Of a stretch of DNA of 64,000 nucleotides, positions 18,081-64,000 are shown one piece after another; position 1 is the stretch's first letter, and each line of letters opens with the position of its first letter. The position numbers and the translations under genes are program-made. Under the pieces are notes generated by a model. The model had not been told where the DNA came from, ran no database searches, and saw only the letters and a list, made by a program, of their open reading frames with translations. The stretch is taken from the NCBI GenBank assembly GCA_049517415.1, contig JBEKSC010000005.1, positions 1-64,000 on the forward strand. The letters run 5' to 3'. The stretch comes from Candidatus Bathyarchaeia archaeon (lineage in GTDB: Archaea; Thermoproteota; Bathyarchaeia; 40CM-2-53-6).

Positions 18081-18850
18081 CTAATGCGGAATGAGTTTCC
18101 GGAAATTGCTCCAGACCGCTTCCCGCACTTCGTCAATGTGAAGGCCCTTAAGCTCAGCCACTCTCCGTACCACCTCTATTACGAATGAAGGTTGCGTAAG
18201 CCGGCCTTCGAAAGGTCCGCGGTATTTCACCGGACCGTCGGTTTCGCTCAATATGATGTCCAATGCTCCGTTACTTGCAACTTCATTTATCGCCCGAGAG
18301 TAGAATACTGCTGGCCCGATCGAGATCAGGTAACCTCTTTCTGTGATCACCTCAAGTTTGTCTAATGGTCCATCATACCAATGTAACAGGACTTTGGGCA
18401 GGTGGAATTCTTGCAAGGCTCCCAGTACTTCATCAACTGCCAACCTTGAATGGACTACCACTGGCAATCCATTACGCTCGGCCAGGCCCAGGAAGAACCT
18501 GAAAACCTCCAACTGACGTTTTCTAACCTGCTCATCTTGGGTGTACTTTCCGTCAAGCCCTACCTCTCCGATTGCGGCAACGTACTCTGCATCTTCCTCA
18601 ATTAGCTGCTGAAACTCGTCCAGACGTTGGTCCTTTGTGTTCATCACCGTCGATGGATGAACTCCTATGGCCGCGAGAACCCTTGAAGAGTATCGTTTCG
18701 CCAGGGCTATAGTTTGGGTTGACGTCTCATAATCCACGAGTTTGAGAGAAGGCACATCACCTTATTCTTGATCGCATCATCAAGGGCCTGTTCTATCCGG
18801 CCAGCAAAGCCAGGTTCCGCTAGATGTAGGTGGGCGTCTACGTAGCTCAA
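18081..18850 (-). pseudogene. tatD: TatD-family nuclease with a 1-nt frameshift near 18737 (pseudogene or sequence error)
   Basis: N-terminal MSYVDAHLHL (TTG 18850) is in a different frame from GVHP, IGEVGLD, VHSR, LHW and ETDGP. Confidence 0.85.
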
Positions 18851-22967: not shown

Positions 22968-23942
22968 ATGTCAACGAGTATTATGTTAAGCGGCAACGGA
23001 GAACTTTCCTCCTTGCGGATACCCGAGATTAGTAAAGAAGCTGAAGCGAAGGGCTTCGGCGGGATATGGTTTGGTGAGACGACATTGCGCGATGCTTCAG
23101 TGCTCGCGACGATTGCGGCATGTTCAACCAAAAAAGTCCCGCTTGGGACATCTATTGTGAACGTTTTTACTAGGTCGGCGAGTCAGTTGGCTCTCTTCGG
23201 GGCCACTCTAAATGAGTTCAGCGGAGGAAGGTTCACACTCGGTCTTGGTGTGAGCACAGCGGCAATCGTGGAGAGCTGGCACGGCCAACGCTTCAGGAAC
23301 CCAATGCGGAGGCTGGAGGAAACCGTAAAGCTAGTTGACCAATATTTCTCCGGGGAAAAATTCAGTCACCAGGGCCCATATTATTCACCCGTTAACGCGA
23401 GATTGAGAACTAGGCCACCGCCCAAGGTCGCCCTGGCAGCCTTGAATGACCAGATGATCAAGAAGGCGGCCAAGCTCGCAGACAGGGTGATTTTGAATCT
23501 ATACCCAACAGACCGAATCAAACACGCGCTTTCACTCATGAATGAAGGATGCCGAGAGGTCGGGGGAAAAGAGCGTCCGACATTGTCAGTGATGCTCTAC
23601 TCCTACGTTCTGGGGGACGATAGCAAAGGCTTGGACGCTGCTAAGGATTTGATCAGTTTCTATGCTAGCGCACCGCCCTACTCTGCGCTCTTCTCAAGCC
23701 TAGGGTTCGCGACCGAGGCAAATGCAATGATGGCTGCTTGGAAAGCGAAAGATCGAGACGCTGTCAAACGAAGCGTGAGCCGTCAGATGATTGACAAACT
23801 AGCGGTTCTTGGCACCGTCCGTGAACTAAGAGAAAGGGTGAAGGAATATCACGAGAATGGTGTGGATGATGTTTTCATTTCGCCGTCGCCCTTCGGAGAC
23901 TATGAAGCCAACGTAAATGAGATCCTTCACCACTACTTTTAG
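22968..23942 (+). CDS. LLM-class flavin/F420-dependent oxidoreductase
   Basis: AEAKGFGGIWFGE, LGTSIVN, GRFTLGLG. Confidence 0.88.
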   Translation: MSTSIMLSGNGELSSLRIPEISKEAEAKGFGGIWFGETTLRDASVLATIAACSTKKVPLGTSIVNVFTRSASQLALFGATLNEFSGGRFTLGLGVSTAAIVESWHGQRFRNPMRRLEETVKLVDQYFSGEKFSHQGPYYSPVNARLRTRPPPKVALAALNDQMIKKAAKLADRVILNLYPTDRIKHALSLMNEGCREVGGKERPTLSVMLYSYVLGDDSKGLDAAKDLISFYASAPPYSALFSSLGFATEANAMMAAWKAKDRDAVKRSVSRQMIDKLAVLGTVRELRERVKEYHENGVDDVFISPSPFGDYEANVNEILHHYF

Positions 23943-23963
23943 CATGTTCTTGTCCCGCTTGAT

Positions 23964-24191
23964 GTGCACCCGGTGCTACCGAGCATTTTCTTGAAACTTG
24001 TGGGCGTCTCACTATTGATTTTCGGCGTATACGACGCCAAAGTCTACTGGTATGCATTAACCAAAGGAGAAGGGGCCTTCGACTTCTTCGGGAGGGAGTT
24101 GCCAGCAAGGCATAGGGGCGTCAAGATAGGGTTCACCTCAGTCCTCGTATTCTATTTTGCAGTGGGAACCGTCATGTTGATCTTTGGTTAG
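23964..24191 (+). CDS. Small two-TM membrane protein
   Basis: Two hydrophobic segments. Confidence 0.55.
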   Translation: MHPVLPSIFLKLVGVSLLIFGVYDAKVYWYALTKGEGAFDFFGRELPARHRGVKIGFTSVLVFYFAVGTVMLIFG

Positions 24192-24271
24192 CCTACGCTC
24201 AGCGAATATCCGGCGGTCTCTGTGTGTAATCTCGGATGGCTCCAGCAACGGCATCTCCCTGGAGGGACGAG

Positions 24272-25198
24272 TTAGTGTTTATGCGTGGCGAGGGCTGTTC
24301 CTGCGAGCAGAAAACATGCCCCCAACGCTGTGAAGGCGGAGAAGTTCTCGCCGAGCAATAGTATTCCGCCTGCTAGACTTACTAAGGGAACCAAGTAGAG
24401 TTGAACTGAAAGTCTGGAGACAGCACGATCGCTGATGAGCGTGTAGAGTATCATGTTGGCAACCACTGTGCTCAGAACCGCGAGATAGAGCACAGAGAGC
24501 CATCCCCAGACTGAGAGAGTGGAAACCTGATCGAGGAAGTTCCACGAGAGCAAGGGCAAAGTGAAAACCGTACCGATTGCTGCAACCCATATTGCTATGG
24601 GCAAAGCACCATACTCCTTCACAAGCGGCTTGGAACCCACCGAGTATATGCTGTACATGAATGCCGCTAATACGACCGCAGACGGGCCCGTAATCTGTAG
24701 AAAGCTTAGATCCGTATTAATCGAGAGTATCACCGCGCCAGCTACTGCTAACGCGAGCATCAACCTGTTTCCAATCTTTTCCTTCAAGAAGACCGCGGAA
24801 AGCAATACGATGAAGATGGGGCCAAAGGAAATTAGAAGTCCTGCAAGACCGGATGACACAATGGTCTCAGCGTAGTTCAGGGAAAGATGGTATCCGACCA
24901 CACTCGCAAATGAAACTAAAAGTATCCTCGGGATGTGCCGTCTCTTGATTGGGTTCTTAGGCCTACCAAAGACCGGAGCCAAGACCAAGAAGCCCCCAGA
25001 CGCGATCAGCCATCTGAGTATGGTCAAGTTGGCCGGACTTAACTCGAACTCCGCTCTTTTGATTGCAACAAAAGCCAAACCCCAGATTATGCTGAGAGCT
25101 ATTACAAGGTTGTAATTGAAAATTCGTGCTCCGGCATTGGCTGTGGTTGGATTCTGCAGTGTCCCCTTCGTAGGGAATTTCGTTTTCATGAGAGCCAC
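24272..25198 (-). CDS. EamA/DMT family transporter
   Basis: IWG.AF..IK, PIF..LLS..FLKE and LLGE; duplicated EamA halves; start uncertain. Confidence 0.9.
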   Translation of the reverse strand: MALMKTKFPTKGTLQNPTTANAGARIFNYNLVIALSIIWGLAFVAIKRAEFELSPANLTILRWLIASGGFLVLAPVFGRPKNPIKRRHIPRILLVSFASVVGYHLSLNYAETIVSSGLAGLLISFGPIFIVLLSAVFLKEKIGNRLMLALAVAGAVILSINTDLSFLQITGPSAVVLAAFMYSIYSVGSKPLVKEYGALPIAIWVAAIGTVFTLPLLSWNFLDQVSTLSVWGWLSVLYLAVLSTVVANMILYTLISDRAVSRLSVQLYLVPLVSLAGGILLLGENFSAFTALGACFLLAGTALATHKH

Positions 25199-25209
25199 AA
25201 ATGCCTGCG

Positions 25210-26340
25210 TTAGACAACTTTGACAGTTTCACGGTGAGCCGTCTGTTCGAGGGCAAGTAGAGCGTGTTTTCTCTTCTTGCCCCAGCGATATCCATGCAGC
25301 CCACCATCTTCACCAATGACTCGGTGGCATGGGATCAAAATCGATACTGGATTCGTAGCACAAGCCCTGGCCACGGCACGGGCTGAGTCTGGCTCGTTTA
25401 GGGCGTTTGCAATCTTGCTGTAGGTGGTCGTGTTGCCATATGGGACAGATTGAATTTCCCTCCAGACCTTCCATTGAAATGCGGTGGCCCGAACGTCCAC
25501 AGGCAAGTTGAGATCGAATTCTTCACCACTGAAATATTTCGTAAGCGTACAAACCCAACTCCCCAATGCCTCATCGTTTCGGTGGATATCTGCTGAAGGG
25601 TAGTCGTTGGTGAGCGCCGCCTCGACCACTTCATCCGAATCGCCCATGCAAACAGCACATATCCCACGCTCCGTGGCCCCCACGAGTAAACGACCTAGAG
25701 GGCAGTCCACGATTGCGTATTCAATTCTTAGTCCAAGCCCGCCCCGGCGAAGCGTTCCCGGATTCACGCCAAATTGATTGGAGGGCTTTTCATAGATTCG
25801 GCTCCTGGAGCTGAAGCCAGCTCCGTAAAGCGCCTTCGCGACCGTTTGCCCATCCCTTAGCGAACGCTTCATCTTTGATAATCGACGAGCTTTAACATAC
25901 TCGCGTGGGGAAATACCGACGACCTGCTTGAAGGTTCTTTGAAGATGATATGGGCTAATTCCCGCTTGAGCGCTAAGGTTTGAAAGACTGAGTTTTCTGT
26001 CTAGGTTGGATTCTATATATTTGCAGACGCGCGCAATCAATTCCGTTTTCGGGGAGGGTCCAACATCCCGAGGTCGACAACGTAGGCATGGTCGAAAACC
26101 AGAAAGTTCAGCCATATCGGGCCCAGCAAAGAAGACCGCTTGCTCCCTGCGGGGGCGCCTAGCAGCACACGATGGCTTACAATAGATTCCCGTTGACCGC
26201 ACGGCAAATACGAACGCCCCATCAAACTTCCCATTTCTAGCTAACACCGCGTTCCATTTCTCATCCTCTGTCTGCAGATTCTCCGTAGACTCTCCCCTCC
26301 TTCTTTGCAACTCGGTGCTGCTAGGTTCCATGGTAAACAT
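25210..26340 (-). CDS. ada: Bifunctional Ada: Zn methylphosphotriester-repair domain, AraC HTH and O6-methylguanine-DNA methyltransferase
   Basis: GIYCKPSCAARRP and GFRPCLRC; AraC-type SPYHLQRTFK...AGFSS; C-terminal PCHRV. Confidence 0.95.
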   Translation of the reverse strand: MFTMEPSSTELQRRRGESTENLQTEDEKWNAVLARNGKFDGAFVFAVRSTGIYCKPSCAARRPRREQAVFFAGPDMAELSGFRPCLRCRPRDVGPSPKTELIARVCKYIESNLDRKLSLSNLSAQAGISPYHLQRTFKQVVGISPREYVKARRLSKMKRSLRDGQTVAKALYGAGFSSRSRIYEKPSNQFGVNPGTLRRGGLGLRIEYAIVDCPLGRLLVGATERGICAVCMGDSDEVVEAALTNDYPSADIHRNDEALGSWVCTLTKYFSGEEFDLNLPVDVRATAFQWKVWREIQSVPYGNTTTYSKIANALNEPDSARAVARACATNPVSILIPCHRVIGEDGGLHGYRWGKKRKHALLALEQTAHRETVKVV

Positions 26341-26381
26341 GTCGGAATGTTGTTCGCAACAAAATAAGTAGTTTGACTCCG

Positions 26382-26398
26382 AATCTTGCTATCAAATT
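26382..26398 (-). promoter_or_regulatory. Putative Ada box (AAT-N6-GCAA) upstream of ada
   Basis: Minus strand reads AAT-TTGATA-GCAAGATT, 42-58 nt upstream of the ada ATG; same layout as E. coli Pada AAT-TAAAGC-GCAAGATT. Confidence 0.7.
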
Positions 26399-26505
26399 CA
26401 GAATTAACCGTCTGCAGAGTTTGAGCTTGAAATTCAGAGTCGTCCTTCATATACACGTTTCTTGATTTCGGTAGTTTTGCGTTGAATTCTTTCGTAGCTT
26501 AGTTG

Positions 26506-27978
26506 CTAGTTTCCTTCTTCGACTTGCCAGGCTATGTCAATATGCTTTGCTCGGTAGATTCGCCATTTGATGTGGCGCACAACATTAGCTAAGAACACTT
26601 CTCCTTGATGGTAGGTTCTCTCCAGAATCGCGTCTCTAGACAGGAAGGCCTCTTTCAGTTCATGTTGCTCTTTCTTTGGCGCAAAGAACACATACACAGG
26701 GACACCGACAGCGAGCAGTACAGCCGAGACCAAGATTTGTTGTGGACTGACTTGGGTCATCAAGAAGAGGGAAAAGATCGCACCCAACCCTGGCACTAGT
26801 GCTCTTTCCCAGACCCCGACTGGTTTCTTTGCGTACTTTCTCTCCAAGAGGACCGCTGAGACACAGGTTGCGAGGTAGGCGAAGGAGAGCAGGAATACCG
26901 AGCTGTTGATCAAGGCTGACAGGCTGTCTGTGATGCTCGCAACAAAGGCCGTTGAGCAGAGGACGATTATGCCGATGTATGGTGTATGAGACGACTTCTG
27001 CAATTTGCTGAAGACTTTCGGTAGCATGCCGTCGATCGACATGGCTAGGGCCAACCTGGATGTGCCAATAGTTCCAGACTCATCAGCACCCAAAATCGAG
27101 ACCAGCGCACCTACAGCGAGAATCAAGCCTCCCATAATCGAAAGAGTGGGTGAAAAACTGAGTACGTTAGAGGCGGCAACAGTCAAAGGTGCGGTCGAAG
27201 ACACCAAGGTCCGCTGATCTACAACCCCTATCACAACAAAATTCGTTATGATGTAGAAGGCCCCCACGATCAGCATTCCGAAAAGCAGGGCTTTTGGCAA
27301 CGTCTTCTTTGGATGTTCAATTTCATCAGCTGGCAAGCTGGAGAGTTCAAAACCAGCGTAGGCCCAAAAGATCAGCACTAAGGCTTGCCCTATGTTCGAT
27401 ACGCCCCCGACAAAGAACGGTTGGAAATGAGAGGATGCTAGATGGGGTTGAAATGCGATGAATACAAAACCTAGGCATATGAGCAGGAATAGAGGACCTA
27501 ACTTGAGTACGGTCAAGAGGTCGTTGATCTTTCCCGCCGTTTTGACCCCGTAAATGTTCGTCAGTATGATGGCGACGATGAATACGGCTTTGAGTAGTAG
27601 CTGAGATGGTTGGTTCAGGTTTGGTACTAACGCGACGAAGTATTGTGTGAAGGCGACGGGAAATACGGCGAGGGAAAACCATTCCGCTATCAGTAGAGCC
27701 CAACCCACCATGAAACCGGCGTATGGCCCAGCTACGTCTTTCGCATAAGCATAGGAGCCGCCGACCCTGGGCAGAAAGGTGGCACAATAAGCAAAGGATA
27801 GGGCTATGACAATTGCGATTACTGCGCCAGCAAGCCAAATCAAGAGGGAGGCTGGCCCAAGGAGCTTCGCGCTAAGAGCTGGCACCACAAAAATGTCAGC
27901 TCCAATAGCTGATCCGACCACGAGGCTTGTTGTATCAAAGGTGTTCAGCTGTCTTCTGAGAGTAACTTTCCGACTCAA
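26506..27978 (-). CDS. APC-family amino acid permease
   Basis: GSAIGADIF, GGSYAY, WAYAGFE, SRLALAMS.DGMLP; about 12 TM helices. Confidence 0.92.
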   Translation of the reverse strand: MSRKVTLRRQLNTFDTTSLVVGSAIGADIFVVPALSAKLLGPASLLIWLAGAVIAIVIALSFAYCATFLPRVGGSYAYAKDVAGPYAGFMVGWALLIAEWFSLAVFPVAFTQYFVALVPNLNQPSQLLLKAVFIVAIILTNIYGVKTAGKINDLLTVLKLGPLFLLICLGFVFIAFQPHLASSHFQPFFVGGVSNIGQALVLIFWAYAGFELSSLPADEIEHPKKTLPKALLFGMLIVGAFYIITNFVVIGVVDQRTLVSSTAPLTVAASNVLSFSPTLSIMGGLILAVGALVSILGADESGTIGTSRLALAMSIDGMLPKVFSKLQKSSHTPYIGIIVLCSTAFVASITDSLSALINSSVFLLSFAYLATCVSAVLLERKYAKKPVGVWERALVPGLGAIFSLFLMTQVSPQQILVSAVLLAVGVPVYVFFAPKKEQHELKEAFLSRDAILERTYHQGEVFLANVVRHIKWRIYRAKHIDIAWQVEEGN

Positions 27979-30882: not shown

Positions 30883-33738
30883 CTAAGCCCTATCCCAAAA
30901 TGGCCTTGTCGTTATGAACTTGAGTTTCGCTTCCAAGAGATCCTTGTAAAACAACTTGTCATCGTCGTGCATCTTCGCGAGGATTCGGCTGGCTGTTTGC
31001 GGCCCGATGCCGTAAACGCACTGAGCTATTATGGCCCGTTGTCCGTATGATAGGACCAGGTCGGCTGAGCGTCTGGCTCGGGCGAGCGTATCTCTTTCCG
31101 CGTCCTCCAGAGTCTTAGCTTTGAGTTTCTTCTCCAATAAGCGGGAGAGATAGTCTGTGGACCACGTAGAAACAGCCAAGAGGCCTGAGCGGCAGGACGA
31201 GCACTTTGGCTTGTTTGGGAGAGCCTTGACAACTTGGGCTTGCATCAATTCTCCACATTCGAAGCAGAGCAAATCAACAGTCATATTTCCCAAGCTGTAC
31301 TGGAGCCTCGCAATCGTATCCCTCTCCACAGTCTCTGGAGCGATTAATTCCGGTACGTCGACGTGTTTGTTGAGAAGGTGAAACCCTAACGGGGTCGGCT
31401 TCTCTCCGGCCCTATAAAGTGCAACCTCCATCTCGCCTTCTCTTATCATCCGGTAGATTTCTCGCACGCGAGGGTAATCCACATGAAGCATTAACGCTTC
31501 GCGAATTGTTTCATCGTAAATTGGTGTCATCCGGAAACGTAAGCCAAGTTCCCTGAGGTTGTCACCTGAGAACATTAGCCCGCGCCGCATGGCCCCGAAA
31601 CGTTCGGCGATGAATTTCATGTAGTAACCAAACGGAAAGTGTCTGTGCAAAACGCCTTTGAATACGCCTTCAAGAACGCCCGCATCAAGATCGAAGATTG
31701 TTGCGCGCATTTCCTCCAAGGAAAGGTCGTCGGTGGGGCTGGTTAATTCTAGTAGGATACGGTAGGCATCAGCCCACCACTGCCTTACCAGGCCCTTCCT
31801 GGAGAGCAGTTCCTCGTAGACTTCACCAAGGGTATTGTTCACGGTTTCGCCGAACGAGGCGTGGATTATCAGGAACCTATCAAACGCCTCAAGTACAATC
31901 CGTCTGTCGGTTGGAACCGGTGCACCCATTTTTCTATGGCCGTCAATCTCCTCGACGATCTTGCGTATACCGAAACGTTCTGTCGGCCACTTACCGCTGA
32001 GGAGTGTGACCGCGGATGTCGGTGCGTTGGTTTCAAGTGATTGCACGACTTCTAACCGTAGGTGGCCGACTCTTTGAGCTAGCTCAAAAGGGATAGGCAG
32101 CATCTCTCCGTCCCATCCAGGGACGGCGGCAGTTGGGTCTTCAACCGGAGTCACGTAGACACGTGCATCATCAGAGATCTGCTCGATCTGCCAAACCTTC
32201 CCTTTTATGATGAAATGCAGGCCTAACCTAGCCTTGGTCATCATGAATTCCTCGCCTAGAATTCCGACAGACTGCTGAGTTGAAACATCGATGACTTGGT
32301 ACCTTCGTTCGTCGGGGATCATAGAGAGATTTTCGAAGTAGTATTGACGGGTTCTGCTCCCGCGAAATAGCAAGCCCCCTTCCTCTCTGAGGTAACGCAT
32401 CGTCTCCATGTAGGAGGCCACTCGGTCGAATTCTTCCCTAGACAACTCTCGATACGCGTGGGCTCGTCGTATCAGTGCAAACGCTTCGTCAGCCTTGATC
32501 CCATTTTCCGATTCCAAGACGGTGCCTGTTATTTGGTGCGCGAGCACGTCGAGTGCTTTCTCATGGATTTGCACTGGTTCAATTGATTTCTCCTGTGCTT
32601 TTTGAACCGCGGCGACAGATTCTAGGATGTCTTCCGTTGACACAGCCAAAATTGAGCCTTGGGACACTCGGTCCAGTCTGTGTCCTGACCGTCCCACACG
32701 TTGGATAAGGCTCGAAACCTGGCGAGGTGACATGTATTGGATTGTCAAATCCACATTTCCAATATCAATTCCGAGTTCAAGCGTTGAAGTGCAGACTAAG
32801 GCTTTGATTCTGCCATTCTTGAAATCATCCTCAACTCGCACTCTTTCTTCCTTGGGTAGAGAGCCGTGGTGAACGCCTACGTTCCGTTTAAGTTGATGAA
32901 ACTTCGAGCCCAAGGTTTCCGCGTTGGTGCGGCTGTTGACGAAGATTAAGGTCGATTCATGGTCCTCGACTAATTCCCATATCCTATTCAGTCGGGCGGC
33001 TGCCTCAGGGGCGGTGTACAGACTCTGTGCTACTATGTTGTCCTCGTCGGTTGGGTGCGGAAATTCAACGAAGTACTTTGCCTCTTTCGGAGGTAGAACC
33101 TGGATTACTTCATATGGCCTGTTTCCAGCTATGAATGCCCCGATTTGATCCGGATTCCCAACAGTGGCTGATAGGCCGATCCTCTGGAATTCATGGCCCG
33201 TTACTTTTCTGAGTCTCTCAAGCCCAATCATCAACTGGACGCCACGTCTGTCGCCCGCAAGTTCATGAACTTCGTCGATGACAACCCACCGAACGTGCTG
33301 CAGGTGGGAACGCATCAGTCTGCCGGGAAGGATTGCTTGTAGCGTTTCAGGCGTTGTAACCAGGAAATCTGGTGGCTTGAGTGCCTGTCTGCGTCTCTCC
33401 TTCTGCGGCGTATCGCCGTGTCTCACCTCAACTGTGAAGCCAAGTTTTGTTCGCCAGAAATCGAGGCGTTTCATAAGGTCCCGGTTCAATGCTCGCAACG
33501 GCGTTACGTATATTACCGAAATTCCTTGTCGCTTTTCCAGTTTCGTGAGCTGGTCTAGGATTGGGAGTAGAACTGCTTCAGTTTTTCCCGAACCAGTCGT
33601 GGCAATCAGCAGAATATTCGTACCACTCATGATCTTCGGAATAGCGACCAGTTGTGGGGGCGTTGGCTTCCTTAAGCCGGATTCGGCTAGGGCTTCCTGA
33701 ATCGCTTTTGAGAGGTTTGAAAAAACTTGTTCAGTCAG
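30883..33738 (-). CDS. lhr: Lhr-type ATP-dependent SF2 helicase with C-terminal Zn finger; probable CTG start (track starts at ATG 33630)
   Basis: Q motif KPTPPQ upstream of the ATG, TGSGKT, TPLRALNRD, DEVH, SAT, QRVGRSGH, C-terminal CFECG...CSSC. Confidence 0.92.
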   Translation of the reverse strand: MTEQVFSNLSKAIQEALAESGLRKPTPPQLVAIPKIMSGTNILLIATTGSGKTEAVLLPILDQLTKLEKRQGISVIYVTPLRALNRDLMKRLDFWRTKLGFTVEVRHGDTPQKERRRQALKPPDFLVTTPETLQAILPGRLMRSHLQHVRWVVIDEVHELAGDRRGVQLMIGLERLRKVTGHEFQRIGLSATVGNPDQIGAFIAGNRPYEVIQVLPPKEAKYFVEFPHPTDEDNIVAQSLYTAPEAAARLNRIWELVEDHESTLIFVNSRTNAETLGSKFHQLKRNVGVHHGSLPKEERVRVEDDFKNGRIKALVCTSTLELGIDIGNVDLTIQYMSPRQVSSLIQRVGRSGHRLDRVSQGSILAVSTEDILESVAAVQKAQEKSIEPVQIHEKALDVLAHQITGTVLESENGIKADEAFALIRRAHAYRELSREEFDRVASYMETMRYLREEGGLLFRGSRTRQYYFENLSMIPDERRYQVIDVSTQQSVGILGEEFMMTKARLGLHFIIKGKVWQIEQISDDARVYVTPVEDPTAAVPGWDGEMLPIPFELAQRVGHLRLEVVQSLETNAPTSAVTLLSGKWPTERFGIRKIVEEIDGHRKMGAPVPTDRRIVLEAFDRFLIIHASFGETVNNTLGEVYEELLSRKGLVRQWWADAYRILLELTSPTDDLSLEEMRATIFDLDAGVLEGVFKGVLHRHFPFGYYMKFIAERFGAMRRGLMFSGDNLRELGLRFRMTPIYDETIREALMLHVDYPRVREIYRMIREGEMEVALYRAGEKPTPLGFHLLNKHVDVPELIAPETVERDTIARLQYSLGNMTVDLLCFECGELMQAQVVKALPNKPKCSSCRSGLLAVSTWSTDYLSRLLEKKLKAKTLEDAERDTLARARRSADLVLSYGQRAIIAQCVYGIGPQTASRILAKMHDDDKLFYKDLLEAKLKFITTRPFWDRA

Positions 33739-58726: not shown

Positions 58727-59704
58727 ATGAACTATAGGCGTCTTGGTAGCGCAGGGCTGAAGATTAGCGAGCTTTCTTTGGGAGCTTGGGTTACGTACGG
58801 AGGCCAAGTCGGCGAAGATGCCGCGCTGAAATGCATGTCTGCCGCCTACGATGCTGGAGTGAATTTCTTCGACAACGCTGAAACTTATGCACAGGGAAAC
58901 GCCGAGAAGGTCATGGGAAACGTACTCAAGAAGATGGGTTGGCCACGTGAGAGTTTCATCGTGTCTAGCAAAGTCTTCTGGGGTGGAGAAGGCCCTAACG
59001 ATAGGGGGCTCTCCCGCAAACACGTCTACGAAGCTTGCCGGAAGTCCCTGAAACGCCTCCAGCTCGATTACCTAGACCTATTCTTCTGCCACCGTCCCGA
59101 TCCGACTACTCCAATTGAGGAAACAGTTCGGGCGATGGACGATTTGGTCCATCAGGGTTTGATCCTATACTGGGGTACCTCAGAGTGGAGTGCAGCTGAC
59201 ATAATGCGAGCCTACGGCATTGCAAGAGAACAGCACCTGACCACGCCGCAAATGGAACAGCCGCAGTACAATATGTTGCATCGGGACCGAGTGGAGAAAG
59301 AGTACATTCCCTTATACCGTGAAATTGGTTTGGGCACAACGATCTGGAGCCCGTTGGCGTCTGGGTTGCTATCAGGCAAATACAACAAAGGCATTCCAGC
59401 AGGCACTCGAGGATCGCTTCAAGGCTACGAGTGGATGCGTGAATTCATTCTCACACCGCAGAACATTGACAAAGTGAAACAGTTGCAACCCATTGCCTCT
59501 GAACTGGGTTGTACGATGGCGCAATTGGCTTTGGCATGGTGCCTGAAGAACCCGAATGTGAGCACGGTAATTACGGGCGCAACCCGACCGGAACAAGTCG
59601 TAGAGAACATGAAAGCCCCAGGGATAGTTTCAAAGCTGGATTCCGAGGTTACGGAGCGAATCGATAAGGTCCTGGGAAACAAACCGGTTATCGAAGAAGA
59701 CTAG
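58727..59704 (+). CDS. Aldo/keto reductase, Kv-beta/AKR6-like
   Basis: [40 protein letters not shown]. Confidence 0.92.
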
Positions 59705-60276
59705 CCCGCTGCAGAGTCGAGAAGTGCACGCAACTTCCTGAAATCCTCCAGCATCACCTCCCTCAAACTGAAGGTGTAGAGGGCAGCAGCGGGGTGGTAC
59801 ATAGGAAAGTACGTCTTTCCACCGACCTCGAAGGGTATACCGTGAACTTCCGTTACGGGGTCATCTGACTTGACTAGTGCATGTATTGCTGAGTTGCCCA
59901 TCGGACAGATTACGCTTGGTTGAATGAGGGCGATCTGTCGTTCAAGGTATGGTCTGCAAGCTGCCGCTTCATCCTTTCTGGGCGGCCTGTTGTTCGGGGG
60001 CCTACACTTCGCAAGGTTCGTGATGTAAACTTCTTCTCGCTTCAGATCTACGGACGCAAGGAGTTCGGTGAGAAGTTTACCAGCAGCCCCAACAAATGGG
60101 CGACCTTGAAGATCCTCTTGCTCTCCTGGGGCTTCCCCGACAAACACCAGCCTCGTCTTTGATGACCCCTCACCGGGAACTGCTTTCTTCCTAGTCTCAC
60201 AAAGCCGGCACTTCCTGCAGGAGACCACTTCGCTTGAGATCTTATCCAGGGAATCTTCGGTTTCCGTCGAAATCAC
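59701..60276 (-). CDS. udg: Family 4 uracil-DNA glycosylase
   Basis: C..C.LC, GEAPG, PFVG.AG, KCRPP.NR, HPAA. Confidence 0.95.
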
Positions 60277-60383
60277 ATCCGGGTGAGTTGGATTGCGCTT
60301 ACCGGAATTTTGTTAACGCACGGTATATATTCCTCTTTTTAACTTATCGGTACGGTGTATAATAGCGCAGACTACTATGCGGC

Positions 60384-60545
60384 CTACCATTCGAACGGAC
60401 ATACCGGATTCTCGCATTGATGTAGCCCCGCATGTCCCTTTTCTCGCCCGCAAATATGCTCCTTGTGTAGGCCAGCAATGGCTCCGCATTTCTCCGCTTT
60501 CTCACGCCACGAAGTTATAGTTCCTGCTGCTGGGATATCTGACAA
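60384..60545 (-). CDS. Cys/His-rich microprotein (53 aa; not in ORF track)
   Basis: MSDIPAAGTITSWREKAEKCGAIAGLHKEHICGREKGHAGLHQCENPVCPFEW; GGTGA upstream of TTG. Confidence 0.65.
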   Translation of the reverse strand: MSDIPAAGTITSWREKAEKCGAIAGLHKEHICGREKGHAGLHQCENPVCPFEW

Positions 60546-60550
60546 ATTCC

Positions 60551-60697
60551 CTACTCACCCTCATGGAGTGGCAGACCGCATTTAGGACAAATCGCAATAT
60601 ACACAGGCCCTTGTCTCCCATCAGGTAGCCTGACATATTCCCCGAACCACGCCGGATAATCGAATTCCTTTTGGCATCCAAATACACAAAGCACCAT
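60551..60697 (-). CDS. CPxCG Zn-finger microprotein (48 aa; not in ORF track)
   Basis: MVLCVFGCQKEFDYPAWFGEYVRLPDGRQGPVYIAICPKCGLPLHEGE; GGTGA six nt upstream of ATG. Confidence 0.7.
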   Translation of the reverse strand: MVLCVFGCQKEFDYPAWFGEYVRLPDGRQGPVYIAICPKCGLPLHEGE

Positions 60698-61055
60698 CTT
60701 CTATCACCACAAAGAGAACCCCAACGGGATTGGGTATAAGTCTTGTCACCTAACTATCGACCTAAATTAGCCTTATTTTGCTATAGAGATACGTGAAAGC
60801 TATTTTGTTTGCCAAAAGAAGGTAAGTTTGGCCTATATATGACTAAAGGAACAAGAAAAGCATACGAGAAAAAAATGAGTTACTACTACTGTATATGTAT
60901 TCGTATATAATATAATATAGGTATTGTACTTGGATGGTAGCAAGTAGCTAATGGAATATGGCGAGCAAGATGTTGCGAGCATATCAGTATATCAGATTGC
61001 AGTGATATATGATATTATATATTATTGTTTCTTAATTGATTAGATGTATTCCGCC

Positions 61056-61114
61056 GCCCCCCCTTCGGGGCCTCCAAAAATGGGGGGGCAGTATAATGAG
61101 GATTTGGGGGGGCA
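61056..61114. repeat. GC7 / G7C inverted repeat plus a TGGGGGGGCA direct repeat
   Basis: C7 at 61057-61063; TGGGGGGGCA at 61081-61090 and 61105-61114, inside AT-rich non-coding DNA. Confidence 0.8.
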
Positions 61115-61380
61115 TAACCGAATAACCAATTTAGAAAGGCATAAAGCTATAATTTTCTATACTATTCTGTCTAAAACTATTAAAGTGCACTACATGGTAT
61201 AGCGACAGCCTCCATATATAGAGAGTAGAAGGATATAATCATAATTAGGCCAAAATTCGACGATATTAATAAATGCGGCAATCTGCACGCAAATAAGAAT
61301 CATATAATGATAATCTGAGACATATAGAGTAAATAGAGACTAATATGAGATGATTACATATATTAGTAGGGGGCCATAAG

Positions 61381-61728
61381 TTGGAACAATACATATTCAA
61401 GCAACTGAATGATAAATTAGATATCATAGACCTATTGCTCTACGATAATTGGAGTATAGGAAGATTTTATGCTTGCCCCAAATGCGGGGCCAGAGGCAGA
61501 CTAGGCATGGGAAAAACCCCTCGCTATGGTGTGTACTGTGTATACATGCTTCATCATAACTCAGAGGAATGTCACTTAGGAAGATTTGACTTGAGAGCAT
61601 TGGGCCCTGAGAAGTTAAGGGACAATGCGAGGAAAATAACCACTATCATAAAGACTAGAAGAGCAGAGCGACTAAATAAGAAAAATAATATCGAGAGATT
61701 GATAAATGGAAATAAAGATGAAACTTAG
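61381..61728 (+). CDS. CPKCG-type Zn-finger protein of the kind seen in archaeal viruses and plasmids
   Basis: CPKCG..G.L...Y.Y..H....C.LG pattern and basic C-terminus. Confidence 0.7.
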   Translation: MEQYIFKQLNDKLDIIDLLLYDNWSIGRFYACPKCGARGRLGMGKTPRYGVYCVYMLHHNSEECHLGRFDLRALGPEKLRDNARKITTIIKTRRAERLNKKNNIERLINGNKDET

Positions 61729-61798
61729 ATATAGAGCACATAAAAGAGGTATATTATATCATATATTACATAGAGGCAAGCATAAACATGAAAGATAA
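61718..61798 (+). CDS. 26-aa basic His-rich micro-ORF
   Basis: MKLRYRAHKRGILYHILHRGKHKHER; overlaps both neighbours by 11 nt. Confidence 0.4.
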   Translation: MKLRYRAHKRGILYHILHRGKHKHER

Positions 61799-61934
61799 GC
61801 CATTAATAACAAAGGCTGAAAGAGAACTTCTAGCTAAACTTAAGGATAAAATGTATAGCCCTAAAGATAAGAAAAAGTTGGAAAAGTTAGAGGATATATA
61901 TGAAGAAAGCAGTACGGAAGAAGAAGCCCGATAA
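61788..61934 (+). CDS. 48-aa charged helical microprotein
   Basis: MKDKPLITKAERELLAKLKDKMYSPKDKKKLEKLEDIYEESSTEEEAR. Confidence 0.6.
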   Translation: MKDKPLITKAERELLAKLKDKMYSPKDKKKLEKLEDIYEESSTEEEAR

Positions 61935-62019
61935 AGCAAAAATGAGTAATTCAACTATTGACCACTTCTATAATAGCGTAATATATACCGATGATAATGA
62001 GTATAGTAATAAAGATTAA
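61900..62019 (+). CDS. 39-aa micro-ORF
   Basis: MKKAVRKKKPDKAKMSNSTIDHFYNSVIYTDDNEYSNKD; GAGGATATAT before ATG. Confidence 0.45.
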   Translation: MKKAVRKKKPDKAKMSNSTIDHFYNSVIYTDDNEYSNKD

Positions 62020-62032
62020 GAGATAATATAAT

Positions 62033-62278
62033 ATGAATCCTTTAAACTACTCCCAAACGGCAACACTAGCTAATTCGCAAGCAAGAGCATCTGTTGCCAG
62101 TGCCACATCTAGCGCCGCAAATAGCCCCAATGCTTCGGTCAATCAAGGGACGAGCAAAACTACAGCCGCATTGTCCGGTGCAAGTGTTACCAATAAGAAT
62201 CCGAGCACAGGTACAACCTCAAGCAAATCGCTCAGTGCCGCTAGTGGCTTCACACAAGGCGGTTTCTACGGAGAATAA
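62033..62278 (+). CDS. Ser/Ala/Thr/Asn-rich low-complexity hypothetical protein
   Basis: 81-aa ORF preceded by AAGAGATAATATAAT. Confidence 0.65.
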   Translation: MNPLNYSQTATLANSQARASVASATSSAANSPNASVNQGTSKTTAALSGASVTNKNPSTGTTSSKSLSAASGFTQGGFYGE

Positions 62279-62313
62279 AACGAATACAATTAGCATATAA
62301 GGAGTGATATATA

Positions 62314-62463
62314 ATGACAACATATTATACTGATACAACATATACAAGCGCAAGAGAAATGCAAGCGGCCATAAATGCTATGGATACATCAGTAACAACC
62401 ATAGTATTTATTTTCAAAGGCGGATTGGCGGATTTTCACCTAATAACAATGCCAGCAGCATAA
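62314..62463 (+). CDS. 49-aa microprotein
   Basis: MTTYYTDTTYTSAREMQAAINAMDTSVTTIVFIFKGGLADFHLITMPAA; AAGGAGTGA RBS. Confidence 0.65.
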   Translation: MTTYYTDTTYTSAREMQAAINAMDTSVTTIVFIFKGGLADFHLITMPAA

Positions 62464-62497
62464 CCTATGATATATTAATAATATAAGGAGATGATAT

Positions 62498-62599
62498 ATG
62501 ATGGCACATCCAGATACAGCAACCGTTGACCGTGTTGTTCCTGAAAGACGTAGACGAAGGCAATATGCACCTGTCAACAGTTATAATCTAACGAGTTAA
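62498..62599 (+). CDS. 33-aa microprotein with an Arg5 run
   Basis: MMAHPDTATVDRVVPERRRRRQYAPVNSYNLTS; AAGGAGATGA RBS. Confidence 0.55.
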   Translation: MMAHPDTATVDRVVPERRRRRQYAPVNSYNLTS

Positions 62600-62651
62600 T
62601 TATTATAGTTTTATACTATAAATATATAATATAAAAGGAGATGAATATCAT

Positions 62652-63338
62652 ATGAATGATATAAAAGAACAAATGCAAAAAGATAAGAAAGACAGACTAT
62701 TAAGACAGACTAAGAGTGAATACCACCTCGACCAAGGTTTAGACCAAACTAAATTTGCTGGTCAGCCAAATGGTTATATTAGCGAATCTACCAACAACCC
62801 CAATCCCGTATTAGTAAGCCATAGCATTATCGAAGCTAAAGAGGATAGAGTTAAAGACATGTTGGCAAAAGAGGCTATGAATAAGAAAATAGCAATACAA
62901 GAAGCATATAATGACTATAGTACACCTAATACCATTATGGACACGGGACAGCATGTAGATTTGGCTTATGGACGGTCTAAAGCTCCAAATGATAGGGGAT
63001 TTAAACATATTTCAGACAGTACACGTAGATATGCACAACCTAAACTTATAAAGAACATACTACAAGGCCATGCATCTATATACTATTGCACAAGCCATGA
63101 TGAGATATTAGGATATAACAATAGGTCAGTATTTGATAATAGACTACATACAAAAGAAACGCATTGTGAAGTAATGAAACTATCTGATGCACAAATACTA
63201 TCAGAGTTCCCAGAAATTCGAACCCTCTTGGCAAACATTAACAGCCTGAGTACGAATTTGAGTGTAGCGCAGCCAAGCTCCAATTCCGACATATCGGAGT
63301 CAGGATGCTATAATCCCCTTAAGCGGAAAAGAGCATAA
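62652..63338 (+). CDS. Hypothetical protein (228 aa)
   Basis: Long ORF with AAGGAGATGA RBS; no recognisable motif. Confidence 0.75.
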   Translation: MNDIKEQMQKDKKDRLLRQTKSEYHLDQGLDQTKFAGQPNGYISESTNNPNPVLVSHSIIEAKEDRVKDMLAKEAMNKKIAIQEAYNDYSTPNTIMDTGQHVDLAYGRSKAPNDRGFKHISDSTRRYAQPKLIKNILQGHASIYYCTSHDEILGYNNRSVFDNRLHTKETHCEVMKLSDAQILSEFPEIRTLLANINSLSTNLSVAQPSSNSDISESGCYNPLKRKRA

Positions 63339-63365
63339 ATTCCCTATATTTTTTAATATATAGGT

Positions 63366-63395
63366 AAAATAACGCAAAATAATGCGAAATAAGGT
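63366..63395 (+). repeat. Three imperfect 10-bp tandem repeats
   Basis: AAAATAACGC / AAAATAATGC / GAAATAAGGT, directly before TATATAAAA. Confidence 0.6.
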
Positions 63396-63417
63396 GAGTA
63401 TATAAAATAAAAGTTGC

Positions 63418-63459
63418 GGTATGGAGCCTTATGCATCCCACGGCATAAGACTCTGTACC
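63418..63459 (+). other. 16-bp stem-loop upstream of the nuclease gene
   Basis: GGTATGGAG/CTCTGTACC (two G-U pairs), C.A mismatch, CTTATGC/GCATAAG, 8-nt loop. Confidence 0.7.
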
Positions 63460-63488
63460 AATACATTAATCCATATAGGTGTGTCTAT

Positions 63489-64000
63489 ATGAACAGTAGT
63501 ATATATAGTAAGAACGGATATATAAATATATCGGACAGACATAATAGACGTTCCAAAGGAGCATACTTTGAACGTATAGTATATGACTTTTTATATGATT
63601 TAGATAATAAAGAATTAATACATAATCAATTTAATGATAAGATAGCTGATATTATATATAAAGATAATTATATTGAATGTAAGAATTGGGAGAATACGAC
63701 TAACTTAACTGGCTTGCTCATAGCTACTCAGATAACGCCCAAATTTAATGACAGCAAAAACAAGCACCGGATAGCCCTATTCAAGAATAAGATGAACCTA
63801 ACCCGTAAGGCTAAAGACTTGCTCGCCAAGCACAACATAGCGTACATGGCTTGGGACACATTCAAAGCATGGATTAGAGCTAAGATTAAACCAAAAACAG
63901 CCAGTTTAAGGCAGGTCATTTACCGTAGCTATAATGATAGATACAGTAGATGTAATAGCAATGATGGACAGCCTGCGTATGGTATGGCTAACTGTGATAG
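63489..64000 (+). CDS. PD-(D/E)xK nuclease (Hjc/restriction-endonuclease-like), truncated by the window end; not in ORF track
   Basis: MNSSIY...RRSKGAYFERIVYDFL...IADIIYKDNYIECKNW; no stop before 64000; AGGTG upstream. Confidence 0.8.
   Translation, partial: MNSSIYSKNGYINISDRHNRRSKGAYFERIVYDFLYDLDNKELIHNQFNDKIADIIYKDNYIECKNWENTTNLTGLLIATQITPKFNDSKNKHRIALFKNKMNLTRKAKDLLAKHNIAYMAWDTFKAWIRAKIKPKTASLRQVIYRSYNDRYSRCNSNDGQPAYGMANCD

Follow-up and report, generated by a model that had tools for sequence, protein, structure and literature searches.

A bacterial-type Ada and its operator in front of a predicted archaeal promoter in Bathyarchaeia suggest a methylation-triggered alkylation response

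The window analysed here, the whole 64,000-nucleotide stretch of Bathyarchaeia DNA, holds a bacterial-type ada gene preceded by a bacterial-type operator that lies in front of a predicted archaeal BRE and a weak TATA-like box. We regard it as probable that this Ada acts as a methylation-triggered activator of itself and of a small regulon. Judged by sequence, the protein would likely switch on repair and transporter genes via the archaeal transcription machinery. The host carries archaeal markers, namely a 16S gene in the genome and TgtA and deoxyhypusine synthase above cut-off in the window, and orthologous ada genes adjoin thermosome and archaeal-type uL16.

The ada gene (25210-26340, minus strand) is an open reading frame of 376 residues in which Pfam recognises, in a single chain, a zinc methylphosphotriester sensor, an AraC-type double helix-turn-helix (HTH) and an O6-methylguanine methyltransferase, the last by both of its Pfam domains. 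The zinc domain (PF02805, 26071-26262) contains CKPSC (residues 54-58) and CLRC (85-88), the double HTH (25744-26046, residues about 99-199) has SPYHLQR in HTH1 and GFSSRSRIYE (25789-25818) as the second HTH helix, and the methyltransferase domain (25243-25719) carries PCHRV (residues 337-341) at 25332-25318, all on the minus strand. Alignment to E. coli Ada places counterparts of C38, C42, C69, C72 and C321 at C54, C58, C85, C88 and C338, and those of R45, R71, F114, H115 and R118 at R61, R87, Y131, H132 and R135; the roles of these residues in E. coli (DNA contacts, zinc cysteines) are taken from excerpts of PMC4437013. With the NCBIfam Ada model NF011964 at 355.1 bits against a cut-off of 345, the full three-domain Ada reported by the first-pass annotation, with its four zinc cysteines, AraC HTH and PCHRV, is borne out. 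Across the family, the whole set of key residues is kept in 42 of 45 Ada proteins when conservative changes are allowed, and C54 in 44 of 45. The clusters nearest to the window Ada in the ESM Atlas are bacterial, and a structure prediction, with a pTM of 0.36, gave no information beyond that of the sequence.

On the coding strand of ada, AAT-TTGATA-GCAAGATT is read at 26398-26382, where the first-pass annotation had placed an Ada box. That position holds, but not the extent, since the box covers only the left half of a conserved element of 37 bp, RNT-TTGRNN-GCAA-GATT-CGGA-GTCAA-nn-TACTTATT, that reaches about 26363. We number the element so that CGG occupies positions 9-11 and the archaeal ATG position 50. 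Its parts, all on the minus strand, are the left part AAT-TTGATA (26390-26398, consensus RNT-TTGRNN), which from the E. coli protein is the predicted zinc-domain contact; the B box GCAA (26386-26389), whose G lies 49 nt before the ATG; 4 nt further on, an X-type box CGGA (26378-26381), common to the bacterial relatives and absent from the E. coli ada site; and GTCAA (26373-26377), which is specific to the archaea, stands for the bacterial TAGRNN hexamer and holds in its AA, at -34/-33, the predicted BRE core.

The minimal box AAT-N6-GCAA was dropped as evidence because its frequency is at chance level (15 in the window against 10.97 expected, 467 in the genome). The 11-base form AAT-N6-GCAAGATT, in turn, occurs twice in the 2.65-Mb genome, and a matrix derived from the sites of 15 relatives, with the window site itself left out, gives the latter 61.7 bits against 12.8 for the next genomic site, leaving the genome with one strong site only, at ada. 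Just upstream, on the opposite strand, a weak match to the operator matrix (26418, plus strand, 12.8 bits) is not conserved in relatives. Among 58 dereplicated archaeal sites, chosen by a pattern spanning positions -6 to 17 so that conservation there is partly by construction and only positions outside that span are free evidence, RNT is found in 45 and AAT in just 9, while GCAA and the TT after the A box are conserved. The conserved parts are GCAA and the Cada2-type CGG box; AAT, which the first-pass annotation named as the A box, is not among them.

Of 36 family genomes, 17 yielded a full-length Ada, as against none of 24 from other families of the same order. All 18 family loci, the window's included, have the 37-bp element upstream of ada, and the distance from the G of GCAA to the ATG is 48-50 nt in 15 of the 16 loci aligned first, and usually 49 nt. 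The Ada zinc domain is present in 34 of 59 family genomes, and the element accompanies it in 34/34 (33 by a first pattern, G062 by a second) and is found in 0/25 genomes without the domain; these genomes are kin, many of them are incomplete and many sites come from close genomes, so that the counts are not independent tests. A reversed-pattern control gave 1 match in the 59 genomes, and all 16 genomes unused in pattern building have the site just before ada. Flanking DNA and upstream genes differ between family loci, the proteins are only 44-62% identical, and the element is near-invariant.

The element also extends beyond the family. In a second order, with Ada in 19 of 79 genomes, a matrix that stopped at position 12 found the operator before ada in 16/16 loci with upstream DNA, a count that leaves out the 3 loci without it; all 16 have TCAA at positions 14-17, and behind it lie near-canonical TATA boxes, among them TATAAATT, ATTAAATC and CATTAAAA. 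Conservation in archaeal orthologues, which had been proposed as a check on the box, was thereby looked at in two orders and did not refute it. A class-wide pattern search matched 23 of 43 family genomes, 2 of 71 in family f73 and none of 186 others. A phylum sample of 400 genomes yielded no further full Ada, but this sample had not picked up the second order either and is no proof of absence. Quick trees without bootstrap group the family and g190 Ada in one branch among bacterial sequences (SH-aLRT 96-97), with g188 apart; a single origin of all archaeal Ada (support 22) and more than one would both be compatible with these trees. In genus g27 of the same class (L205-L208, L211, L212), weak zinc-domain matches lie inside unrelated frames of 345-392 residues, which are not full Ada and have no operator.

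A GTDB-wide scan with the 17-mer returned at least 120 stretches, most of them by chance, and among the matches listed no non-archaeal one lies before ada in the DNA examined. One exact archaeal-type 17-mer stands 60 nt before an EamA gene in a Streptomyces record (L099:1501-1517), where full Ada was not found; the match is possibly due to chance. A plasmid search gave distant Ada only, at most 45% identical.

With the ATG taken as +1, the window locus has AA at -34/-33, TACTTATT at -30 to -23 and AA at -11/-10. All three match the places of BRE, TATA box and WW element given in excerpts of PMC4247193 and PMC2151090. The TATA-like run named by the first-pass annotation, CTTATTTT, is found at its given place (26368-26361, 21-28 nt before the ATG). 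The weak box TACTTATTTT (26361-26370, minus strand) can be read as CTTATTTT from 26368 or, 2 nt earlier, as TACTTATT at 26370-26363. The earlier register is favoured by the homologous, near-canonical boxes of the second order (TATAAATT, TATATAAC, ATTAAATC). The genome's own promoter model gives CTTATTTT at 26368 2.6 bits and the start at 26370 under -2, and two unconserved upstream sites outscore the TATA-like box in it. One tRNA gene in the genome has CTTATTTG upstream. The genome-wide TATA profile against predicted ATGs is too diffuse to settle the register, showing only a fall-off past about -28. In either register the box appears weak, and it seems to be conserved as weak in the window's family; in the second order it is near-canonical.

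The AA at -11/-10 (26350-26351, minus strand) fits an archaeal WW element if the transcript is leaderless, and WW is found there in 35 of the 58 archaeal sites against a local expectation of 24%. For the 28 sites that lack an ATG where one is expected, a pyrimidine-purine step occurs at offset 49 in 9 and at offset 51 in 14, an unclear signal. The operator lies directly upstream of the predicted BRE/TATA, at a spacing fixed within 1-2 nt in both orders. The genome (G000) has four TFB loci (C4, C15, C34, C52) and four TBP loci (C6, C8, C12, C50). The TFB on C15 is an orthologue conserved across the family, and the other TFBs form a second group about 45% identical. The genome's Sigma70_r4 matches amount to one open frame of 137 residues and two TFB genes, and no sigma70-like site was found at window positions 23900-26700.

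For comparison we used 69 bacterial ada loci, made up of 10 metagenome contigs, samples of the Acidobacteriota group (the phylum of Pyrinomonadaceae) and the Dehalococcoidia group, and a few others; locus G771 was excluded from all analyses and counted only in the tally 36/251. Upstream of ada, 40 of the 69 have GCAA-N4-YGGR with the same RNT-T left part, and many of the 29 without the strict operator keep CGGA-TAG with an altered B box. After the operator, TAG follows in 32 of the 40, and YAnnnT in all 40 at a spacer of 17 (27 loci) or 18 (13 loci). We take TAGRNN to be a -35-like hexamer and YAnnnT to be the -10. The archaeal sites, on the other hand, have no TAG (0/58), a -10 at the bacterial place in 2/58, and an A+T content at positions 20-27 of 78% against 38% in the bacterial ones. 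The bacterial -10 occupies positions 36-42, from which a start at about 48-49 follows, close to the archaeal ATG at 50. It thus appears that the operator stayed while the basal promoter was exchanged, at an unchanged distance to the start, since an AA at the BRE position and an AT-rich box lie where the bacteria have -35 and -10.

The Ada of the Acidobacteriota and Dehalococcoidia groups shares with the window's the 21-bp operator at about equal distance from the predicted start, and its nearest proteins are 49-58% identical. It differs in having TAGRNN, 17-18 nt and YAnnnT, mostly a Shine-Dalgarno leader, and G177/S179 in HTH2. The earlier view that the operator had been retained is supported, with the change that it belongs to the widespread GCAA-N4-CGGA type of these two groups and not to the E. 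coli type.

The second helix of HTH2 reads GYGSSSRLYE in the bacteria against GFSSRSRIYE in the window Ada. Position 179 is R or K in 45/45 family proteins, basic in 0/40 bacterial ones and S in 36/40, and an acidic residue at 173 (30/40 bacterial proteins) is mostly gone from the archaeal family. In an alignment with 6 Cada2-like bacterial proteins, RIYE falls opposite RLHD in 3 of them and opposite RIYD and RIHN in two more; RLHD is the motif that Cada2 needs for its GCAA-CGG site according to excerpts of PMC10957082. The g188 proteins have the helix STSWLY and the site CAGA-CTCAA. The first base of GTCAA tracks HTH2: S179 goes with T, R/K179 with G, and T179/W181 with C and CAGA. This correlation between residue and base, drawn from three lineages, is a lead only. 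A second ada copy in G006 (L496:1894-3054, G006:C8) is frameshifted, with the g188-type helix TAWLY and the site CAGA-CACAA; transfer or contamination is possible for this copy, the genome being 7% contaminated.

Mechanistically, Cys54 of Ada would accept the methyl group of a DNA phosphotriester; this would lift charge repulsion as in E. coli, and the zinc domain, HTH1 and HTH2 would bind RNT-TT, GCAA and CGGA(G). Bound Ada would then touch and stabilise TFB-TBP on the adjacent weak promoter. The contact would most likely be made via the BRE-binding domain of TFB at positions 13-19, which would take the place of sigma region 4 on the bacterial -35 hexamer, and a likely leaderless ada-eamA transcript would close a positive feedback. 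Excerpts of PMC5937170 describe archaeal activators that occupy a site immediately upstream of BRE/TATA and bring TFB or TBP to weak promoters. To a longer history we give slightly less than even weight: an AraC activator working on sigma region 4 would have entered archaea with its operator, once or twice, and joined TFB, yielding a covalent methylation-triggered response with a new regulon (EamA, Ogt, Cys-rich proteins) and with S179 to R/K as part of the interface. In this history, the shared location of BRE and the former -35 would be the reason why Ada was plugged into TFB. The case for activation of some kind is much stronger than that for TFB as the contact partner.

Methylated Ada might instead activate without touching TFB, by recruiting TBP or RNA polymerase, by clearing histones or by bending DNA. 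In the family it is the TATA box that is the weak conserved element, with AA at -34/-33 intact, a deviant TATA box goes with TBP rather than TFB recruitment in passages of PMC5937170, and the genome offers four TBP loci. Yet the operator edge abuts the BRE position at nearly fixed spacing, which fits direct contact with the nearest factor, and the second order keeps the same spacing despite its near-canonical TATA boxes; we rate activation of this other kind as unlikely. The trigger itself could be read otherwise, with methylation of the C-terminal Cys338 as the switch, or with an Ada active regardless of methylation. The PCHR cysteine is the switch of Caulobacter Cada2 in passages of PMC10957082, and the window protein has the RLHD-equivalent helix as its operator has the CGG box. 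Such a switch is quite improbable all the same, given the retention of the four zinc cysteines and R61/R87, the near-universal C54, and bases left of GCAA that are as strongly conserved in the archaeal sites as in bacteria.

Repression is a further reading, in which HTH2 on GTCAA would keep TFB off BRE until damage relieved the block. GTCAA is invariant except that its first base varies with HTH2, so that Ada may read into BRE, and excerpts of PMC4437013 state that unmethylated E. coli Ada at high level can repress its own promoter. The same excerpts report that methylation raises the DNA affinity of E. coli Ada, however, and a repressor would be expected to face a strong promoter, not a TATA box conserved in weak form; moreover, the same operator abuts an equally weak -35 in bacteria, a layout of activation. 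We see only a slim chance for repression. Very slim indeed is the chance that another, native dimeric regulator controls ada from the inverted repeat TTTGA-N15-TCAAA (26396-26372), an exact repeat in 21 of the 58 sites: GCAA and CGGA, where conservation is highest, are asymmetric, genomes without Ada lack the element, and over its left 21 bp the element agrees with the operator of bacterial ada genes. The dimer reading was dropped as the two arms do not covary. Finally, the box could be a functionless relic of recent transfer, in keeping with the patchy presence of Ada (10 of 22 genomes of the genus) and the frameshifted copies in G013 and G028. The conservation data already contradict this, with an element near-invariant between diverged proteins, flanks and neighbours that differ, new archaeal-type parts and spread to unlinked genes, and we give it almost no credence. 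Our preferred reading remains methylation-triggered activation by Ada.

Compared with E. coli Ada, the archaeal system has the same three-domain protein, zinc cysteines, DNA-contact residues, PCHR, GCAA box and autoregulatory site; the DNA upstream of E. coli ada reads AAT-TAAAGC-GCAAGATT. It differs by CGGA after GCAA, a variable A box, a RIYE-type HTH2, the lack of a sigma promoter after the operator, and the targets (EamA, Ogt, Cys-rich proteins). With Caulobacter Cada2, as described in excerpts of PMC10957082, it shares the GCAA and CGG boxes and the RLHD-equivalent helix; Cada2, however, has no zinc domain (PF02805 in the window Ada), is switched by its PCHR cysteine and contacts RpoA, and its GCAA-CGG spacer is given there as 3 bp against 4 here. 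The closest precedent is the Mpt response of Aspergillus fumigatus, for which part of PMC3439912 describes a bacterial-derived Ada-type sensor and Ada boxes before its targets in the absence of sigma factors. That host is a eukaryote, Mpt and Agt are split, the boxes lie within about 300 bp, and no fixed abutment to a basal element is described in that part. Pyrococcus TFB-RF1, in passages of PMC5937170, likewise has a site at conserved distance just upstream of a weak BRE/TATA, autoregulation and transporter targets; its site is palindromic, the protein family is another, and those passages describe no covalent damage switch.

Bacterial-type regulators on archaeal promoters are well known, as excerpts of PMC7408454 attest. 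In the literature searched, mainly papers with open access, no report of an archaeal Ada response or inducible alkylation response was found. The distribution section of a 2023 review (PMC10779285) names no archaeal Ada response, and a term search of the main text of a survey of archaeal regulators (PMC2872624) gave neither AraC nor Ada. If true, the system would be an inducible alkylation response in archaea, and it would let a single activator with a single operator be compared, in nature, on two unrelated basal machineries. Both the bacterial and the archaeal state are available, along with the residues that changed, so that it would become testable how regulators of bacterial type come to act as activators at TBP/TFB-dependent promoters.

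The first-pass annotation had also suggested co-regulation of the EamA/DMT transporter gene (24272-25198, minus strand, PF00892) 11 nt past the ada stop. From this arrangement ada and EamA likely form one transcript, and together they make up the predicted regulon of the window's genome. Co-regulation gains support beyond adjacency, as an unlinked copy of the window's own EamA subfamily has its own element (G004, L082) and a second subfamily, about 25% identical to the window's, stands behind 14 sites. In all, 57 distinct sites at family genome loci lead to ada (32, one via a small ORF), EamA (15), an Ogt-like methyltransferase (5), an ORF of 74-76 residues (2) and other genes (3). Of 18 family loci, 11 have EamA next after ada; among the 69 bacterial loci, 8 have a distant EamA near ada. 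Neither alkB nor aidB was among the genes behind the operator sites found. Within the window, a TatD nuclease (18081-18755), an Lhr-type helicase (30883-33630) and a uracil-DNA glycosylase (59701-60276) have no operator.

In the second order, three genomes carry extra sites ahead of a CCG-domain protein, and one ahead of a CGGC-domain protein (L472, L476, L492, L494). A thiol or Fe-S role of these Cys-rich proteins in alkylation defence is possible, and the repeated recruitment of EamA and Cys-rich proteins would point to unstudied parts of that defence. Three further pattern matches in this order look degenerate or unexplained, and behind one no ORF was found. A gene convergent to ada in G1094 (L454:2980-3600, minus strand) resembles, we presume, a 3-methyladenine glycosylase.

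Basic ORFs of 74-84 residues also stand under the operator (L015:1237-1482, plus strand, L006, L241 and L258; L081:628-855, plus strand, and L083). In one subclade, a GTG-started small ORF at offset 49 precedes ada, intervening in L006 and L015, and a small ORF with its own site in G004 and G013 is possibly related to it. The small ORFs had no Pfam match, and the ESM Atlas gave nothing reliable for them. Back-to-back operators with divergent promoters occur at G004:C14:4504-4589, at G013:C1:152519-152588 and in L080. In G013 and G019 ada lies elsewhere and one arm of the paired operators faces another gene, presumably for a PPOX-class protein. At the end of the window, positions 60300-64000 have a G+C of 0.36-0.41 against 0.50 and few long ORFs, one of them of 228 residues without a Pfam match, and are possibly an inserted element.
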